This document shows, piece by piece, positions 5,266 through 38,916 of a stretch of 50,448 bases of DNA. Position 1 is the first letter of the stretch, and the number at the start of each line of letters is the position of its first letter. The stretch is from an uncultured Mycoplasmatota bacterium (GTDB taxonomy: Bacteria; Bacillota_I; Bacilli_A; RF39; UBA660): the NCBI GenBank assembly GCA_946554325.1, contig CAMNSB010000002.1, positions 1 through 50,448 of the forward strand, written 5' to 3'. The notes under the pieces were generated by a model that did not search any database, was not told the origin of the DNA, and saw only the letters and a list, made by a program, of their open reading frames with translations. The translations under genes and the position numbers were made by a program.

Positions 5266-6126
5266 TTACATAAAATTTTTACTAATCCACTGATAGAGCA
5301 AATTACCAATTTCTAATTCTTTTTCTTGATATGTATGTCCTGTATTTTCTATTATTTTATATTCGAAATTATTACAGTTACAAGCTTTTTCTTTTAACAG
5401 GTTAAGTTGTAAGTAAAATTCTTCTTCATTGGAACCAGAAAATGTCAGTATGGGAATATCTATTGTTTTAAATTGTTTCCAACTTTGCACGTTATTTATG
5501 ATTGGTAAATTGTTTAGGTTTGAATTTTCGTTGTACCAGTTATTATATGTTCTAGAGCTCATATACATATAATCTTCTACTTGTTTATGAAGAAGTTTTT
5601 CTGGCTTTTTATTCTCTATATTTTCTTTTGCTTCATTTAATAATTCATTATAATCAGGCTGTAACATTTTATGACTTCCTACCATATCTGGAGCACTGGC
5701 TAATATCATTCCTAAAATAGTAGGATGTTTTTTGTAATAATAGTAAATAACTTTATTACATCCATAACTATGTCCTAATAGTATTATTCTTTGATATCCC
5801 TTTTTCTTTGCTATTTCTATTGCTAAGTCAATATCGTAAATACAGTCTTCGAAGATCTCATACATACAACCACATCTTTTGAATGTTCCATCTTTCATTT
5901 CTATATCATTTTCAATAGAATGACCTCTATTATGTTCATACAAAAAGCCAATATTTTTTTGTGATAACAATTTTCCCCATACTGTTGCAAAATAGTTATC
6001 TATTATCGTTGCACACATGCCATGAATACAAACTACGCAAATATCCTTTTTACTACTTTCAAAGTGTACCATAGGTAACTTTAATCCATCTTTTGTATAA
6101 GCATTACTGATAAATTCAATGTTCAT
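5266..6126 (-). CDS. Alpha/beta-fold hydrolase
   Basis: 286 aa. GHSYG nucleophile elbow, VCIHGM oxyanion-type motif, C-terminal NTGH. No signal peptide. Confidence 0.7.
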   Translation of the reverse strand: MNIEFISNAYTKDGLKLPMVHFESSKKDICVVCIHGMCATIIDNYFATVWGKLLSQKNIGFLYEHNRGHSIENDIEMKDGTFKRCGCMYEIFEDCIYDIDLAIEIAKKKGYQRIILLGHSYGCNKVIYYYYKKHPTILGMILASAPDMVGSHKMLQPDYNELLNEAKENIENKKPEKLLHKQVEDYMYMSSRTYNNWYNENSNLNNLPIINNVQSWKQFKTIDIPILTFSGSNEEEFYLQLNLLKEKACNCNNFEYKIIENTGHTYQEKELEIGNLLYQWISKNFM

Positions 6127-6136
6127 AATTCATCCT

Positions 6137-7363
6137 CTAATTCCTTTTTATTTTTTCGTGAAGCTTAGAAATGAGTCCAAAGCGATATTTTTTCTTTTCT
6201 TTAATCGCACGTTCATACACTTCCAACACTTGGTTTGCGTAATGACTTGTTCCACAATGCTCTGCTTGAATGCGTGCCTGTTTTGCAAAGTAGGCTCTTT
6301 TCGTTTTATCGTTGTATAAGTCCAGTACTTGTTTTTGGTATTCTTTTTCTGTCTCAAAAAACTTACCATTTAGGTCATCTGTCATCATGGAGATAAATGA
6401 CTCATCCTTCATACAAAGTGGTACAAGGCCTGAAGCCATTGCTTCAATTACCGTTAGTCCTTGTGTTTCTGTTTTAGATGCTGTTGCAAATAGGTCTCCA
6501 CAATGATAATAATATGGAATATCTTCCCAGGCAACTTTATCAGTAAATAAAATATTTTTGGTTAGTCTGTTTTCTTTTGTGTATGATTCGTATTTTTCCT
6601 TATCTGGTCCATCGCCTACGATTAAAAGTTTGATGTTGGCGTGTTTTTTTACTAGTTCTCTTTGAGAATTCAATAAAAACTCGATATTCTTCTCTTGGGC
6701 GAGGCGTCCTACAAATACAATCGTAAAATCTCTTTTTGTAAGTCCTAAATGTTTTTTTATTTCTTGTACTTTTCTTTGATTTATATTTTCTTCGAAAAAA
6801 CGTTCTACTTCGATGCCTGTTGGAATAATATGAACATTTTTTTCAAACTTGTATTTTTCTTTAAATAATTTATACGTCTTATTGGTTGGTACGATTAGTT
6901 CTGTTGCTGTTGTTTCACAATAAAACTTGGTAAAGTATTCCACTAGTTTCTTGCTTGACTTTTGAAAGTATCCTTTTGTTATATAGTGAATATAGTCCTC
7001 ATACATAGTGTGATAGGTATGAACTAAGGGAATGTTATACTGTTTTGCAAAAAGACGAGCGAAGGTTCCTATTGCAAACTCTGTTTGTGAATGAATCACA
7101 TCTAGATTCCAACTTTTGATTTTGTTCACAGCCACAATTGGATAAATACTTGTTAAGCGAGAATCATAAATCCCTGTTGGAATGCCAGGAATTCTGAGAA
7201 TTTTTTCTTCCTCATTATATTCATATTTAAAGTCTATCAAATTTGCTGTTACTACATAGACAGTATGCCCTTTTTTCTCTAAAGCTTTTTTTAACATGAT
7301 TTCACTAGTAACTAGTCCACTAATATATGGTGTATATGTTTCTGAAAAAATTCCTATTCGCAT
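6137..7363 (-). CDS. GT4-family glycosyltransferase (glycolipid synthase-like)
   Basis: 408 aa. GT-B/GT4 E-x7-E signature (ETQGLTVIEAMASGLVP). Overlaps the upstream membrane-protein gene by 10 nt. Confidence 0.8.
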   Translation of the reverse strand: MRIGIFSETYTPYISGLVTSEIMLKKALEKKGHTVYVVTANLIDFKYEYNEEEKILRIPGIPTGIYDSRLTSIYPIVAVNKIKSWNLDVIHSQTEFAIGTFARLFAKQYNIPLVHTYHTMYEDYIHYITKGYFQKSSKKLVEYFTKFYCETTATELIVPTNKTYKLFKEKYKFEKNVHIIPTGIEVERFFEENINQRKVQEIKKHLGLTKRDFTIVFVGRLAQEKNIEFLLNSQRELVKKHANIKLLIVGDGPDKEKYESYTKENRLTKNILFTDKVAWEDIPYYYHCGDLFATASKTETQGLTVIEAMASGLVPLCMKDESFISMMTDDLNGKFFETEKEYQKQVLDLYNDKTKRAYFAKQARIQAEHCGTSHYANQVLEVYERAIKEKKKYRFGLISKLHEKIKRN

Positions 7364-32969: not shown

Positions 32970-33575
32970 TTACTTATTTTTATTTTGTACAAAATCTCCG
33001 TTTTTAATATATTTTCGAAATATTCTTTTGCCATTTTTTTGGATATAGAGATTTGTAAAACGAATTTTTATTCCTTTTGCTGTTTCAAAATTGAAGTCAT
33101 TCTGTATTTGGAAATGAATATGCGGTCCATTCGTATTTCCACTATTTCCAACTTGTGCAATATAATCTCCTGTTTTTACCATATCTCCTACTTTTACTTG
33201 GAAGCTATCTTTTAAGATATGGGCAATGAGACTGTATTCATTATTTTTATGTTTGATTAAAATATAGTTTCCTTTCACATCATCTGCATCACATACAATT
33301 GGTCTATTTTTTCTAATTTTTGTATCTTTATATTCGTTACAAATATCTACTACATAACCGTCTAATGGTGCATAAATTTTCTTTTTATAGGAATAATAAT
33401 TAGGAATGATTAAATAGTCATCATGATAGGGCTTATTTTTTTCATCTCTAATTTCAAAATCGTATGCATAACGTTGCTCAGGTATATCCCACGAATGGGA
33501 ATTTTTTTTTGTAATTCCTCCAAACTCAATAAAAAACTCTTCTTTAAATGGTAAATGATATTTATTTTTACTCAT
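32970..33575 (-). CDS. M23-family metallopeptidase without signal peptide
   Basis: 201 aa. GNSGNTNGPHIHFQI and LIAHIL motifs. No N-terminal hydrophobic segment. Confidence 0.7.
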   Translation of the reverse strand: MSKNKYHLPFKEEFFIEFGGITKKNSHSWDIPEQRYAYDFEIRDEKNKPYHDDYLIIPNYYSYKKKIYAPLDGYVVDICNEYKDTKIRKNRPIVCDADDVKGNYILIKHKNNEYSLIAHILKDSFQVKVGDMVKTGDYIAQVGNSGNTNGPHIHFQIQNDFNFETAKGIKIRFTNLYIQKNGKRIFRKYIKNGDFVQNKNK

Positions 33576-34051: not shown

Positions 34052-34938
34052 TTATTTATTTGATATTAATTTACTTTCTTCTTTTACTTGTTTTTGTAAT
34101 AATTCCAAATCTTTCATACTTTTACTATTTTGTAAAGATTTCATTTGTCTTTTGGTAGATTTATTTAATCTTATTAATCTTTCTCTCTGTGATAAACCAT
34201 CTTCAATTAATTCGGCACTTGTATTTTGCAAGTTATTTAATATTACTAAATGAAGTAAATCGGTATAATCTCTTATATTTCCTTTTTTAGCAAGTTCTGG
34301 ATTACTTTCTTTCCATTCTTTTGCTGTCATTCCAAATAATGCCACATTTAAAATGTCTGCCTCATCAGAATAAACATATTGTTTTTGACTTTCTGTTAAA
34401 TTAGGAACTATACATTTCTTTATTGCATCAGTATGAACTACATAATTAACTTTTGATAGAAGTCTTGTTGCACTCCACTCTAGTTTATATTGATATGCTT
34501 CATTAGTTTTTAATCTTTCGAATTCAGTTATTAAATATAATTTGAACTCTGGAGATAGCCAACTAGCAAATTCAAAGGCAATATCTGGATGAGCAAAAGT
34601 TCCAATGCTATACCTTCCCCCTTAGAGATAATACCTATTGCATTGGTTCTTTTAATCCATTGAGATGGGGACATTGCAAAAGAATTTCTACCATACTCAG
34701 TTTTAATTTGGTCGAATTCAACCAAATTAAAATCAGGATTATGAATTTCTTCCCATAAACCAATGTAATCAATAGTTGTAATCCTTCTTAACCAATTCTT
34801 TACTGTAAAAGATGGATCACTAGAATTTTGATACTTAGCTAAATCTGTTAATGAAATATAATTAACATTACCTACTCTTAAAATTCCCACTTTATTTTCT
34901 TTAACAATAATTTCTGTTGTTACTTCATCTTTTTTCAA
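34052..34938 (-). pseudogene. KilA-N domain protein gene, disrupted by a 1-nt frameshift in a G5 run
   Basis: The N-terminal ORF (34531..34938) carries a KilA-N-like start (VGILRVGNVNYISLTDLAKY). At the C5/G5 run 34617-34621 the alternative frame continues GGRYSIGTFAHPDIAFEFASWLSPEFKLYLITEFERLK... without stops, in frame with ORF 34052..34345. Confidence 0.75.
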
Positions 34939-34967: not shown

Positions 34968-35150
34968 AAAGGATGTTCACATATTTTTTCTGTTTACATC
35001 CTTTATTTTTAGGGCATTTAAGCCATATTTTTTAATTATTTGCAAACAAATATGAATTTGTTAACATTTTTTAACTTTGCGTGAGTCTAGCAAACCCTTT
35101 ATTTATCTCATTTTCCGCAGCAATTTTTGTACTTTTTGCCCGAACCACAA
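34968..35150. repeat. Distal copy of the att-like direct repeat (displaced secA 3' tail plus terminator region)
   Basis: Collinear with 38743-38916. Shared identical blocks are AAAGGATGT (34968/38743), CATCCTTTA (34997/38773), AATTTGTTA (35055/38831) and CCCGAACCACAA (35139/38905), with one ~10-nt indel. Confidence 0.75.
35108..35149 (-). pseudogene. Displaced secA 3'-terminal remnant (13 codons plus stop)
   Basis: Minus strand TGT GGT TCG GGC AAA AAG TAC AAA AAT TGC TGC GGA AAA TGA translates CGSGKKYKNCCGK*. Live SecA ends CGSGKKYKQCCGK*. Confidence 0.75.
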
Positions 35151-35282
35151 AAACTTTGTACTCCCATATTATCAATACTTACAATATTTATAATATTATT
35201 GATATTTCTATGTTTTTAGGACTAGGTAATTCCTATATTATCCATATTATTAGTATCATTTTTATTATAAATATTTCTCTAC

Positions 35283-35310
35283 TGTGGACAAATTGAGGAC
35301 ATTGTCCACA
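35283..35310. repeat. Inverted pair of TGTGGACAA motifs (candidate integrase arm-type sites)
   Basis: TGTGGACAA (35283-35291), 10 nt, then TTGTCCACA (35302-35310). A third copy, TTGTCCACA, lies at 38795-38803 near the other island end. Confidence 0.4.
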
Positions 35311-35364
35311 TTCGTTCACTGGTATAAGTATATCATATTTTAATTATTTTATAAATTGTGCAAT

Positions 35365-36384
35365 TTATTTATTTTCTATTTGCTTTGTTTCATTTAACAA
35401 TCTATCAAAATCAGATACATAATTATTATCTTGAATGACTTTGAACTTTTCATATTCACTTTCGGCTTTCTCTTTGGCTTGTTTATGAGAAATTTTACCT
35501 TTTCCCTCTAAAACATCATAATGAAATACTCTTAATGCATTTTCTACTTCATTCTTCCAATCATTCATATACATTGCAATATTTCTTTCAGCATTATTTT
35601 CGGCAATATCTAAAAATAAGTTGACTAAATTATTCAAGTTCTTAATTTCTTTTTCATCTAAATAATTTTTAGCAATTATTACATCCGATTTTAGTATCTT
35701 GCCATCAGGAGAATTCTCCCATGTTGTAAGTCCCATATTATCTTTTTTTGCATCAACTCTATTATAAACAATTTCAGCAGCAGTATGACCAGTGATAGCA
35801 AAGTGGAATTTATTTTGAATCGTTTTATAAAACGTTATTGCCATATCACTATCTTTATCATAATCAATTGAACATTCAGCAAATATATCAGTAATTTTTT
35901 GATAAAACATTCTTTCACTTGTACGAATTAACTTAATTCTTTCAAGCAATCTTTTAAAGTATTCTTGATCAGATTTTCGTGCTTTCATAAATCTTTCATC
36001 ATTTAAAGCAAAACCTTGAACCATATAGTCTTTGATTATTTTATTAGCCCAAGTTCTAAATTTAATTGCCTTTTTGGAATTAACTCTAAATCCAATAGAA
36101 ATAATCATATCAAGATTATAATATTTTGTATTATAAGTTTGTTTTCCGTCATTACCCATATGTGCAATTTTTGCACATGTGCTACTTTCATTTAATTCTT
36201 CATCTTTATAAATATTATTGATATGCCTAACAATGCCACTTCTATCAATATTAAAAAGTGTAGATAAAGCTTCAGTATTTAACCAAACATCTTCGTTTTC
36301 AAGTAATACTTCTACTTTAGTATTCCCATCTTCATCATTATAAAATAAAATATTTTTTTCATTTCCAATTAGTTTATCATTCAT
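35365..36384 (-). CDS. RhuM-family (Virulence_RhuM) protein
   Basis: N-terminal ILFYNDEDGNTKVEVLLENEDVWLNTEALSTLFNIDRSGIVRHINNIY and YNLDMIISIGFRVNSKKAIKFRTWA are typical of RhuM-family proteins. Start set to ATG 36384 behind AAGGAGG. Confidence 0.8.
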   Translation of the reverse strand: MNDKLIGNEKNILFYNDEDGNTKVEVLLENEDVWLNTEALSTLFNIDRSGIVRHINNIYKDEELNESSTCAKIAHMGNDGKQTYNTKYYNLDMIISIGFRVNSKKAIKFRTWANKIIKDYMVQGFALNDERFMKARKSDQEYFKRLLERIKLIRTSERMFYQKITDIFAECSIDYDKDSDMAITFYKTIQNKFHFAITGHTAAEIVYNRVDAKKDNMGLTTWENSPDGKILKSDVIIAKNYLDEKEIKNLNNLVNLFLDIAENNAERNIAMYMNDWKNEVENALRVFHYDVLEGKGKISHKQAKEKAESEYEKFKVIQDNNYVSDFDRLLNETKQIENK

Positions 36385-36469
36385 TACTTGCACCTCCTTT
36401 AACAATTATTCATTAAGTAATCAGCTAATAATATTATACTATTTTTTATCTTGCTTAACAATGTTACTA

Positions 36470-37722
36470 CTAAAATTTATCTCTCAAATTTATATCTATT
36501 TCTTTTTCTATTGATTCACAAATTTTAATTAAGTCATTAGTGGTACTAGTAATATAATAATTTTCTGTTGTTTCAGTTCTACTATGACCTAACAACTTAG
36601 AAATGTCTTTTATTTCATTTCCTATTCTTAATGCTTTTGTAGCAAAACTGCCTCTTAAATCATAAAATCTGCAGTTGATTCCTAATTCGTGATGAATAAT
36701 TTTAAATGGATATCTTATAATATCTGTTCCAGAATATGTGCCATCTTTCCTAGTAAATACCATTTCTACTCTATTGCGTTTAGAATAACTTTCCATAATT
36801 TTATATTCCACTAACTTACCAAATTTATTTTTTACTTCTTCTATAATATATCTTTTATACTTTTTTGCATATTGATTTTTTAAATTATTTTGTATATTTT
36901 TATAATCTATTAGTACTGCATATAAACTATCACAAATATAAACCTCCCTTTGACTACCTGGTGTTTTAGTTGTAGCTAAGTACCATCTTCCACTTTCTCC
37001 TTTATCTTTTGCATACACAGTTTTATTTATGTTAATAATTCTATTATCTAAATCTATATCATCCCAAGTTAAAGCAAATACCTCTCCTGTTCTCATACCT
37101 GTATAACAAGCAGTAATAAATGCACATATAAATACTTTATTATTCTTAAATCTATTTAAAATTATTTCTATTTCTTCTTTAGTATAAACGTGCCTTACAT
37201 CGTTTTTTTTGATTCAAATGATAACACTCTAGGTATTTCTAAATCACAGGCTATATTATTTTTAATAAAACCAAAATAATATGTTGCATCTCTTAAAGAG
37301 CTTTTAATAACCTTTTGATAATTTCTTAATGCTTCTTTTGTACTAGAAGTTTGGTATAACTTTAATAATGCTTGATTTAAAATATATGGAGTTAGAACTG
37401 ATAACTTATAATTACCTAATTCTTCTTTTATATTACCAAAAGACTCTTTATATCTCTTTGCAGTAGAATATTTATAATTTATTTCAAAATATTCTTTCAT
37501 CCAGTAATCTAAATAATCTCCATATAACATATTACATTCATTAGTAGTTACCCCATTAATGAATTCATCATATGCTTTTTGTCCTGCTATAAATGCTTCA
37601 TTTTTAGTATTAAATCCACTTTTAGTTATTTGCTTTCTTTTACCATTTACCTTTCCTGCTTCAAAACAATATTGATAGACATTCCCTCTTTTTCTTATAT
37701 TGATCATCTTATCATCTCCCAT
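36470..37722 (-). pseudogene. int: Tyrosine recombinase/integrase with Arm-type N-terminal domain, split by a 1-nt frameshift in an A8 run
   Basis: The N-terminal ORF (MINIRKRGNVYQY...NGKRKQITKSGFNTKNEA, SAM-like core-binding part) stops at 37195. The catalytic ORF (MRTGEVFALTWDDI, YDLRGSFAT, LLGHSRTETTENYY) is open back to 37213. One extra A in the run at 37203-37210 would fuse them into a protein of about 415 aa. Confidence 0.85.
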
Positions 37723-37747: not shown

Positions 37748-37779
37748 AAAAAAGTGAAGCATTTTTTCTACACTTTCAC
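37748..37779 (-). terminator. Possible terminator between the membrane cassette and the integrase gene
   Basis: Minus-strand GUGAAAG...CUUCAC (6 bp with one bulged A) followed by U6. Confidence 0.4.
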
Positions 37780-37818: not shown

Positions 37819-38232
37819 TTATTTTTTCCAAAACCAAAACAAATATATACTCATAGAAAGCATAGAAAGTACAAAACTTGCAATCAAATATATATAAATA
37901 TATAATTGATAACATTCTAATGAATCTTGAAATGCTACTATTAAGAAAGGTATTACAACACTAATAAAAATAATAATTATAGATAAAATTCGACCAATTT
38001 TAATATCAAGCGTTGAATTAATACTTTTTAATCTTTTCTCATAAATTTTTTTCTGTTGCTCCTTTAATCTTATTTGATAAGATAAATTATCCATATTTCT
38101 TAATCTATTAATATTTTGAATATTATCAATTGCACTAACTATTCGTGGAGTTTTTAAATCTAGATTAGGAATAATAGGTGGCGGTGTAACTAGAGAACTA
38201 AAATCTGGCAATTTTAAATCTGGTAATTTCAT
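37819..38232 (-). CDS. Hypothetical membrane protein (Pro-rich N-terminus, coiled coil, two C-terminal TM helices)
   Basis: ATG 38232 lies 8 nt after AAGGAG and 2 nt after the upstream stop. Sequence MKLPDLKLPDFSSLVTPPPIIPNLDLKTP..., with hydrophobic LSIIIIFISVVIPFLIVAF and IYIYLIASFVLSMLSMSIYLFWFW. Confidence 0.5.
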   Translation of the reverse strand: MKLPDLKLPDFSSLVTPPPIIPNLDLKTPRIVSAIDNIQNINRLRNMDNLSYQIRLKEQQKKIYEKRLKSINSTLDIKIGRILSIIIIFISVVIPFLIVAFQDSLECYQLYIYIYLIASFVLSMLSMSIYLFWFWKK

Positions 38233-38233
38233 C

Positions 38234-38698
38234 TTATTCACTCCTTTCATAAATTTCATCAACTATTATTTCTTCTACCGAATACTTTTCAACTTTTAGT
38301 TGTTTCTTGCACTCTTCTATTGAAATATCATTGCTTATGATTTCTGCAACCATTAACACATATTCTTTTACATATTGATAAAAATCATTTTGTTCTTGTT
38401 CGCTAATATATGGTATGGAATTTGATATTTTGTACTCTTTTCCTTCAAATATTAAATCAATTATAGAATATACATTATCCTCTTTATAAAATCCATATTG
38501 TTCTTCCTTCAGACCATTAAATTGCTTATTCATATTTTCCAATTCAATAGTTATATCTTCAATTGTGCCAATAACTTCATTTTTTTCTTTTTTTAAATCC
38601 ATTACTTTAGAAATAATCAAACCTATAATGATTGCTATAAAAACACCTATTATTTGTATACTATTTAAAATCAATTCTATTAAATTATCCCATTCCAT
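38234..38698 (-). CDS. Hypothetical membrane-anchored protein (N-terminal TM, coiled coil, acidic C-terminal domain)
   Basis: 154 aa. IQIIGVFIAIIIGLIISKV TM segment, then KKEKNEVIGTIEDITIELENMNKQFNGLKEE. No recognisable family. It is the first gene inside the island on the secA side. Confidence 0.5.
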   Translation of the reverse strand: MEWDNLIELILNSIQIIGVFIAIIIGLIISKVMDLKKEKNEVIGTIEDITIELENMNKQFNGLKEEQYGFYKEDNVYSIIDLIFEGKEYKISNSIPYISEQEQNDFYQYVKEYVLMVAEIISNDISIEECKKQLKVEKYSVEEIIVDEIYERSE

Positions 38699-38742
38699 AC
38701 CTTACCGCCTCTCAATTTATTATTTTAACTATTTTCTACAAT

Positions 38743-38916
38743 AAAGGATGTCAACAAATTTTATTTTGCTGGCATCCTTTAATTTTAATGGATTTTGTCC
38801 ACATTTTATTCAATTGGTTGACAAACAACAAATTTGTTACCTTTTTGATTTTTTACTTTTCCCTTATTTTATCTTACTTTCCACAACATTGCTTATACTT
38901 CTTTCCCGAACCACAA
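38743..38916. repeat. secA-proximal copy of the att-like direct repeat
   Basis: See 34968-35150. It covers the last 14 codons of secA and about 130 nt downstream, including the hairpin AAAGGATG...CATCCTTT and one TTGTCCACA motif (38795-38803). Confidence 0.75.

Follow-up and report, generated by a model that had tools for sequence, protein, structure and literature searches.

A rare, paired and sometimes fused membrane module found as a mobile cassette of defence islands in uncultured gut Firmicutes

In a 50,448-nt stretch of DNA from an uncultured Mycoplasmatota bacterium (contig CAMNSB010000002.1; the whole stretch is called the window, and coordinates refer to it), two adjacent minus-strand genes, here named A and B, encode small membrane proteins. 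Analysis of this pair and of its relatives shows that A-B is a rare, unannotated and obligately paired membrane module, sometimes fused into one protein, that forms a mobile cassette of defence islands. An earlier note on this DNA had described an uncharacterised two-component membrane module carried as island cargo; the module is supported by the data below, but "cargo" is too simple a word, because A, B and the integrase gene (int) are the constant part of their island type. We infer from the gene neighbourhood that A-B has a function in defence, exclusion or toxicity, and in our analysis the pair is best placed with the small membrane proteins that serve as effectors in defence or addiction.

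Gene A (38234-38698, minus strand) encodes an acidic protein of 154 amino acids with one transmembrane (TM) helix, and gene B (37819-38232, minus strand) encodes a basic protein of 137 amino acids, counted from the ATG at 38232, with two C-terminal TM helices. The translational-coupling junction between them (38230..38248, minus strand) reads GAAAGGAGTGAATAAGATG; in it, an AGGAG ribosome-binding site within the end of A is followed by the TAA stop codon (38234-38236), a single base and the ATG of B. The listing of open reading frames (ORFs) and this junction confirm that A and B are the two tightly coupled genes that had been noticed. Approximately 150 homologues of A and 115 of B were found, and pairwise ratios of nonsynonymous to synonymous substitution (dN/dS) indicate purifying selection on both A (0.20-0.38) and B (0.12-0.34). 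Because of these homologues and of dN/dS values between 0.12 and 0.38, we conclude that A and B are genuine genes.

The anatomy of the two proteins was analyzed by hydropathy and charge and by AlphaFold2 models built from the family alignments. These approaches agree with the earlier description of A as a protein with one N-terminal TM helix and a coiled-coil segment, and of B as a protein with a Pro-rich N terminus and two C-terminal TM helices. The TM helix of A is placed at about residues 9-30 by hydropathy and charge, and in the model (predicted local distance difference test score, pLDDT, 92.5) a single continuous helix from residue 3 to 85 comprises the TM helix and a coiled-coil stalk, and three short helices after residue 85 form a small C-terminal helical domain that is conserved and rich in Tyr. 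Acidic residues before the TM helix and a Lys cluster after it predict, by the positive-inside rule, an N-out/C-in orientation, with a short extracytoplasmic part of about 8 N-terminal residues.

In the family alignment, the TM helix is the best-conserved part of A (IQIIG-FIAII-GL is kept), and it contains an invariant G18-x3-A22-x3-G26, a spacing that we take to resemble a glycine zipper. Such patterns are characteristic of helices that pack tightly or form channels. Profile searches of PDB sequences returned nothing significant, the top matches being an amyloid precursor TM segment and leucine zippers (E >= 0.09), and the spurious amyloid-precursor matches of A are explained by its glycine-zipper-like TM pattern.

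The model of B (pLDDT 77.7) has a disordered, Pro-rich N terminus (residues 1-26), a helix at 27-100 that is continuous with TM1, a five-residue turn and TM2 at 106-136, and hydropathy and charge place the TM helices at about 82-100 and 110-133. The basic, 80-residue N-terminal part that precedes them predicts, by the same rule, an N-in/C-in orientation, with an outer loop of 9 residues between TM1 and TM2 and a basic WFWKK tail at the C-terminal end. A conserved AIDNIQNINRLRDMDNL is carried on the stalk helix, and the TM helices are the best-conserved segments in the family alignments, with invariant P95 and F96 in TM1 and F120 and S123 in TM2. Because A is predicted to be N-out/C-in and B to be N-in/C-in, the long helices of both are presented on the cytoplasmic face, where that of A leaves the membrane and that of B returns to it. 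The cytoplasmic parts carry opposite charges, A being acidic (pI 4.3) and B basic (pI 9.6), and this opposition is maintained across the family (pI 4.1-5.0 for A versus 9.1-9.9 for B).

Pairing of A and B is kept to the limit of detection, as the proposal of a two-component module implied. In those of the fetched loci (designated L001 and so on) that are complete at both ends, 3-23 nt separate A from the B that follows it, the exceptions being products of decay, and even for remote B homologues, with 27-30% identity, the gene immediately before B is a homologue of A (hhalign 97.8% and 99.1%). In several lineages, the two proteins are naturally fused. At L024, a one-base deletion at the junction (GAATAAGATG to GATAAGATG) joins A and B into a protein of 292 amino acids; other fusions have 276-283 amino acids (P0264 to P0267) or, in a divergent case, 308 (P0241), and in two short ones (P0248 and P0253) the TM helix and coiled coil of A are joined straight to the stalk and hairpin of B. 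A remote clade is wholly fused (292-320 amino acids; L029, L058 and L059). The fusion proteins keep the order A then B, which matches a helix that leaves the membrane and then returns to it. The fusions have arisen several times independently, and because several lineages fuse them, A and B are most simply read as halves of one three-TM unit.

Neither protein clearly matches a known family, holins and abortive-infection (Abi) proteins included; sequence, profile and fold searches were empty of any clear match, in agreement with what had been concluded from the window alone. Scans of A against Pfam, PHROGs, PADLOC and NCBIfam gave sub-threshold matches at most, and B had no family in Pfam, PHROGs or NCBIfam, with weak PADLOC matches standing out. 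When remote homologues and fusions were scanned against the same four libraries, TM or coiled-coil noise was the most that was obtained, and the sub-threshold noise for A, B and their relatives comprised ZapG-like, DUF948, DUF2721, DUF2207_C, Rz-like spanin, MAG1210 and FliR matches. Foldseek found zero matches at E <= 0.001 for the A model in PDB and BFVD and for the B model in PDB. Scans with Pfam, NCBIfam and PADLOC showed no helix-turn-helix (HTH), ribbon-helix-helix or AbrB domain and no toxin family; a nucleotide-binding domain was undetectable in A or B, and there was no Pfam match to a cyclic nucleotide monophosphate-binding domain in B or its homologues.

The PADLOC match that stands out for B is to PycTM (E = 1e-4), a weak one that aligns residues 58-126 with profile positions 3-71 of 154; this region of B is TM sequence, prone to composition bias, and 4-5 of 26 diverse members match (best E = 1e-4). 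A relationship of B to CorA was also considered, on the basis of a weak PADLOC CorA-like match in one of the 26 diverse members (E = 7e-6), a "CorA" label given by JGI to one B homologue, and the layout of stalk, TM1, loop, TM2 and basic tail. When canonical CorA TM domains were aligned (eight in all, taken from E. coli, T. maritima and six plasmid genes) and the B family was compared with this alignment by hhalign, the probability was 1.9%, and it was 0.3% for E. coli CorA; no CorA chain was among the matches of the PDB profile search with B. CorA and other 2-TM-GxN channels share with B a stalk helix that runs on into TM1 and has a conserved Pro, a TM2 that comes after a short outer loop, and a C-terminal tail that is basic, but B lacks their N-terminal alpha/beta domain and their GMN (GxN) motif, the loop in the family alignments being F-Q-(D/N/E) with no Gly. 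From these results, B was rejected as a CorA relative. A SLATT-type 2TM effector was rejected as well, as no SLATT was among the Pfam matches listed for homologues (25 of 33 families) and the TM helices of B are C-terminal.

The A-B family is tiny and taxonomically extremely patchy. An exhaustive profile search of 1.84 billion representatives at 50% identity recovered the B family in 33 clusters (E <= 0.001), and A was present in 6 of 185,579 species-representative genomes, these six species being uncultured Clostridium, Clostridia or Bacilli metagenome-assembled genomes from gut or rumen. Neither A nor B was found in IMG/VR, GenBank phages or PLSDB plasmids, and we conclude from this absence that the pair does not include a phage lysis gene; a phage origin and a holin identity were rejected on the same grounds. 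The hairpin of B does resemble a class II holin (N-in, C-in), but A-B differs from holin-antiholin and lysis cassettes in having no lysin partner, in not occurring in phage sequence and in giving no Pfam or PHROG holin match.

A-B was never found as a core gene; it occupies at least ten different mobile or defence-island arrangements, which bears out the link of its homologues to mobile elements. Defence genes lie within 1-3 genes of the pair in at least ten arrangements and include restriction-modification (RM) types I, II and IV, TIR-like, Fic, AAA_13/PDC-S06, RhuM/PDC-S05, KilA-N/PDC-S22, Abi_alpha and PDC-M11B-like genes. With tyrosine integrases, the order is secA, then A, B, int and RhuM (the window and L023-L025), A', B, int and AAA_13/PDC-S06 (L005-L008), A, B and int followed by metallo-beta-lactamase-fold and aminotransferase genes and no known defence gene (L049), or an Xis-like gene, int, A and B (L051). 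In a second set of loci (L001-L004, L009-L013, L056 and L027), two methyltransferase genes and DpnII precede A and B, a gene for a TIR-like coiled-coil protein and a serine recombinase gene follow, and the whole lies inside an M14 peptidase gene; L014-L017 have Dcm and Eco47II, A, B and a serine recombinase.

The pair also follows a type I S-like gene, T5orf172-DUF4357 and HTH-Fic (L026 and L053), or stands between a serine recombinase, an HTH gene, two methyltransferase genes and two unknown genes on one side and GmrSD on the other (L036). In L030, which sits in a cell-wall glycosyltransferase cluster, a DUF1016 gene, a gene for a 594-amino acid protein and KilA-N come before A and B, which here have their own TTGACA-17-TATAAT promoter. 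In L046-L048, conjugative-element genes (DpnD-PcfM, methyltransferase and ImmA) or a transposase precede A and B, with Fic after the pair in L046. In the remote locus L022, a serine recombinase, an HTH gene and Abi_alpha precede A and B, and a PDC-M11B-like gene follows. Fused AB lies between HsdR, GmrSD and HTH-Fic on one side and TnpV and SIR2 on the other in L058, and between a serine recombinase and DUF5677 and KilA-N in L059.

When the window was compared with the serine-recombinase islands of the L001 and L014 types, nucleotide similarity was confined to the two ORFs and 4 nt on either side of them, upstream of the ATG of A and downstream of the stop of B. This comparison suggests that the two-ORF cassette is self-contained and moves between mobile defence islands of uncultured gut Firmicutes. 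RM, PrrC-like ABC-HEPN, RhuM and Fic/Doc genes have been described as a multi-level defence neighbourhood (PMC3710099), and because A-B lies in such a neighbourhood, guilt by association points strongly to a role in conflict systems and not to a core gene.

Two further features of these loci were observed. The HTH-Fic genes of L026 (7053-8890) and L058 (5025-6876) are 80% identical, and the same slot after them holds a two-gene A-B in L026 and a fusion in L058, whose A parts are 62% and 32% identical, respectively, to A of the window; this slot sharing reflects either homologous replacement at one position or a real association with Fic. In addition, gene calling often splits the flanking large serine recombinases into two to four ORFs in a row (155 + 158 + 221 amino acids in one case), as in L001 (9560-11166), L009 (8760-10366), L014 (8520-9871) and others, in many independent metagenomes.

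In having a two-helix membrane hairpin after a cytoplasmic helix, and in its defence-island context, B resembles the PycTM (Pycsar), CBASS 2TM/4TM and CRISPR-associated CorA effectors. B differs from these in having no cyclic nucleotide-binding or other ligand domain, in needing a separate 1-TM partner and in that its matches are confined to the TM region. It also lacks an adjacent cyclase or CRISPR system, as no cyclase or CRISPR genes were present in any A-B neighbourhood examined.

We favour, with confidence short of even, the reading that A-B is an autonomous membrane-acting abortive-infection or toxin-antitoxin-like module in which A and B are the two halves of one complex. In such a complex, the glycine-zipper-like helix of A and the Pro-kinked hairpin of B would form a three-TM bundle, and, given the fusion order and the opposite charges, an antiparallel cytoplasmic coiled coil of the two stalks would sit on it, capped by the helical C-terminal domain of A and the Pro-rich N-terminal peptide of B. 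The hairpin of B would be a membrane-perturbing effector, and A would be its membrane-tethered partner, keeping B inactive through the stalk coiled coil. A may also act as the sensor, in that a trigger would be sensed by its Tyr-rich C-terminal helical domain together with the Pro-rich peptide of B. This trigger, a phage protein or the loss of A, would free or rearrange the complex, and the activated complex might then oligomerise and depolarise the cell.

Several observations weigh against this reading. A-B has no homology to any validated effector, its defence role being argued by guilt by association, and the PADLOC PycTM and CorA-like matches are weak, occur in a minority of members and are accompanied by a CorA profile test of 1.9%. 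We infer the coiled-coil contact between A and B from the fusions and the charges only, and a classical mechanism with a labile antitoxin does not sit well with natural fusions that are stable. No sensing domain can be recognised, and very little of the protein mass lies outside the cytoplasm and the membrane. Furthermore, A has lost its 5' part in L005-L008, where B is intact, and B is disrupted in L004 and missing from L033-L035; this partner decay shows that neither loss is immediately lethal. Loci with a 5'-truncated A and an intact B persist in many samples, P0137 being present on 56 contigs. The stable fusions and the loci with truncated A and intact B argue against both a labile antitoxin and a high intrinsic toxicity of B, and mainly because of them we do not place confidence in any single mechanism above the level given here.

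At L033, an A homologue of 147 amino acids is encoded at 6001-6444 with no detectable B, and in L033-L035 split ORFs of a group II intron-type reverse transcriptase (RVT_1/GIIM) lie directly downstream of A. Because these split ORFs lie there, B may have been lost or disrupted at these loci.

A bolder form of the favoured reading, which we consider doubtful, holds that A-B, or its fusion, is an anti-phage system that suffices by itself and has so far escaped recognition. It would be a miniature three-TM "executioner" that carries a cytoplasmic sensor domain of its own. Such a system would spread as a bare two-ORF cassette, often promoterless, that is plugged in behind RM, Fic or KilA-N genes or behind secA, and would be the conserved passenger of a family of very small integrative islands with an integrase produced by a programmed -1 frameshift.

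The alternative that survives best, although we consider it unlikely, is that A-B is purely an addiction (post-segregational killing) module that stabilises small integrative islands and has no direct anti-phage role, B being the membrane toxin and A the acidic antitoxin. As in type II toxin-antitoxin systems, two short, co-directional genes are coupled by overlapping stop and start signals, the acidic one upstream and the basic one downstream, on mobile elements and beside RM systems, where toxin-antitoxin modules are common. In addition, A-B-int is the conserved backbone of the tyrosine-integrase islands, in which the gene after int varies or is missing. A-B differs from type II systems in that both products are membrane proteins and in that no DNA-binding domain by which A could regulate its own expression can be recognised. 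A differential stability of toxin and antitoxin is difficult to square with the in-frame fusions, among them an entire fused clade, and the persistence in many samples of intact B beside a 5'-truncated A indicates that B is not strongly toxic without full-length A.

Somewhat less probable than an addiction module is a membrane blocker of the superinfection-exclusion (Sie) type, which would prevent the entry of phage or foreign DNA without killing the cell. Sie2009, T4 Imm, P22 SieA and HK97 gp15 are examples of such proteins. Like known Sie genes, A and B encode small integral membrane proteins beside integrases; the partner-decay loci suggest low toxicity, and the pair shares defence islands with RM, GmrSD and similar DNA-targeting systems, which also act at the entry stage. 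However, classical Sie genes are prophage morons, whereas A-B was never in phage or prophage sequence and has no similarity to any PHROG, and the extracytoplasmic exposure of the pair, about 8 residues of A and the 9-residue loop of B, is minimal.

The most abundant type of A-B locus raises a further possibility. Directly after the pair in L001 (7905-9002), and also in L009-L013, L027 and L056, a gene encodes a 365-amino acid protein with a coiled coil of ~200 residues and an N terminus that is TIR-like (PADLOC TIR effector, E = 3.7e-9) or nucleoside 2-deoxyribosyltransferase-like (PF05014, E = 1.8e-5, below cutoff); this protein matched nothing in NCBIfam or among PDB sequences. A validated three-gene system from a hotspot of the P2-like phage AC1 (Rst_2TM_1TM_TIR; Rousset et al. 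2022, PMC9122126) consists of two TM proteins and a TIR protein and is proposed to kill via its TM proteins, and the general view of TM proteins encoded in defence hotspots is that they act as suicide effectors (PMC9122126). As in A-B, the small 1-TM and 2-TM proteins of that system are encoded by adjacent genes in a defence hotspot, and the L001-type loci mimic its architecture, with the TIR-like gene directly after the pair, but the searches described below detected no homology. The gene order also differs from that of A-B, the hosts of A-B are Gram-positive, and A-B of the window is followed by an integrase and no TIR gene. The TIR-like gene occurs only in the L001-type loci and L027, and because it is absent from the window and most contexts, A-B is independent of it. 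When A and B were compared by tblastn with 50,697 phage records, a collection in which the presence of AC1 is unconfirmed, nothing matched at E <= 0.01, and no PADLOC model matched A in a library in which the presence of AC1 hidden Markov models is likewise unconfirmed.

It is conceivable, if improbable, that A-B is a shared downstream membrane effector for a neighbouring enzyme (TIR-like, Fic or nuclease) and an orphan or remnant in the window. The 365-amino acid protein directly after the pair and the precedent of two TM proteins with a TIR protein (PMC9122126) favour this possibility, as does the 80%-identical HTH-Fic gene followed by a two-gene version (L026) or a ~32%-identical fused version (L058), which suggests selection in that slot. 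In contrast, the flanking gene differs in almost every context, nucleotide homology ends at the edges of the cassette, no TIR-like or Fic gene is adjacent in the window, L014, L030, L036 or L049, and A and B have no detectable nucleotide-binding domain. Least probable of all is a membrane role outside conflict (envelope stress, division or transport) that hitch-hikes on islands, for although the weak, sub-threshold resemblance to TM-plus-coiled-coil families (ZapG-like, DUF948, DUF2721, DUF2207_C) and the place of L030 in a cell-wall glycosyltransferase cluster with its own consensus promoter would fit it, the family is scattered very unevenly among taxa (6 of 185,579 species genomes), its place in the genome varies in every case, and in nearly all loci it directly adjoins known defence genes or recombinases.

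If A-B is a working defence or addiction module, as we favour, it would be a membrane-acting system of very small size, made up of two proteins or of a single fusion, that is not homologous to any catalogued system and comes from uncultured low-GC gut Firmicutes, a group that has been little explored. A three-TM unit, split or fused, in which the cytoplasmic stalks are complementary in charge would offer a compact model for the silencing and then the triggering of membrane suicide effectors, and a precisely delimited two-ORF cassette behind unrelated defence genes bears on how defence islands are assembled. Interest is limited by the now numerous candidate defence genes and by the narrow, rare family and uncultured hosts of A-B.

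In the window, the 3' end of secA is the integration site of the island that carries A-B. Alignment extends a direct repeat of 56 nt (38861-38916 and 35095-35150) to ~195 nt with 77% identity, which contain the last codons of secA, a spacer and a strong hairpin. The island-proximal attachment-site (att) repeat (38742..38916, minus strand), identified by repeat, alignment and fold as was the distal one, comprises the present secA 3' end and its hairpin, directly upstream of A; the island-distal repeat (34968..35150, minus strand) comprises a displaced copy of the secA 3' end encoding ...CGSGKKYKNCCGK* and a terminator hairpin (34968-35004). These sequences indicate that the element integrated into the secA 3' end and carries its own copy of that end. 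Because of the duplicated secA 3' end, the island is taken to span about 38916 to 34968 (~3.9 kb), and it contains A, B, the integrase and the RhuM gene only, so that A and B are, as had been proposed, its first genes on the secA side.

The hairpins of the island were examined by folding. The proximal one (38742-38781) is real and strong, a 149-nt stretch folding at -28.4 kcal/mol (z -3.7) with no clear U-tract, and the distal one also folds well (z -3.5); the difference in U-tail between the two copies, on which the earlier note had drawn, is modest. The hairpin with U6 that it had placed between B and the integrase (37748..37779, minus strand) does exist, yet its fold is weak (-8.2 kcal/mol, z -1.4) and is matched by 17 of 200 shuffles; since the terminator scan did not call it either, it is a leaky terminator at best. 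A promoter of its own for A was rejected, as promoter scans found no sigma-70-like promoter between the proximal hairpin and A in the window. Because no such promoter precedes A, read-through from secA is the simplest route of expression, and the cassette of the window is probably expressed in this way, across a hairpin without a U-tract.

The tyrosine integrase of the island (36470..37722, minus strand) is encoded in two ORFs, assigned by Pfam as Arm-binding and SAM-like domains (37195-37722; 170-175 amino acids) and a catalytic domain (36470-37096; 206-228 amino acids). A -1 shift at the slippery heptamer A_AAA_AAA (37204-37210) joins them, and the same in-phase site (TC A AAA AAA ACG ATG TAA) is present in four diverged integrase copies at different genomic sites, the other three being near 8073 in L005, 8448 in L023 and 2375 in L049. 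Purifying selection acts on both halves (omega 0.09-0.34). On these sequence grounds the split has the appearance of programmed -1 frameshifting or of transcriptional slippage on A8. With the shift site conserved and both halves under purifying selection, the integrase was rejected as a pseudogene, and an alternative genetic code was rejected as the basis of the split recombinases, since other genes of the window are intact under table 11.

The gene after the integrase occupies a variable cargo slot. In the window this is a RhuM-family gene (35365..36405, minus strand), an identification by the earlier note that Pfam (E = 2.9e-101) and PADLOC (PDC-S05) uphold. Where the window (35107-36405) has RhuM, L005 (8883-11340) has a PrrC-like AAA_13 gene (PDC-S06), split into 120 + 577 amino acids, and the flanks of the slot are conserved: the integrase on one side and, on the other, 260 nt at 35107-35365, a stretch that overlaps the start of the distal att copy. 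RhuM accompanies A-B in one island lineage only (the window, L023 and L024) and is absent from L049 and all other contexts. The functional link to RhuM that the earlier note had suggested is not borne out by this replacement in L005, and the comparison indicates that in tyrosine-integrase islands A-B-int is constant and the gene after int is variable cargo.

Outside the island, towards prfB, lie a split KilA-N gene, an ORF of 107 amino acids and an M23 peptidase gene. The M23 peptidase gene (32970-33575, minus strand; 201 amino acids), with no obvious signal sequence in the ORF listing, falls outside the att-bounded island, between prfB and the island remnants. The KilA-N/PDC-S22-type gene (34052-34938, minus strand) is present as two ORFs of 135 and 97 amino acids, which match profile positions 5-103 and 196-276 of 281, and probably remains from an insertion that took place earlier between secA and prfB; KilA-N relatives that are intact adjoin A-B in L030 and L059.

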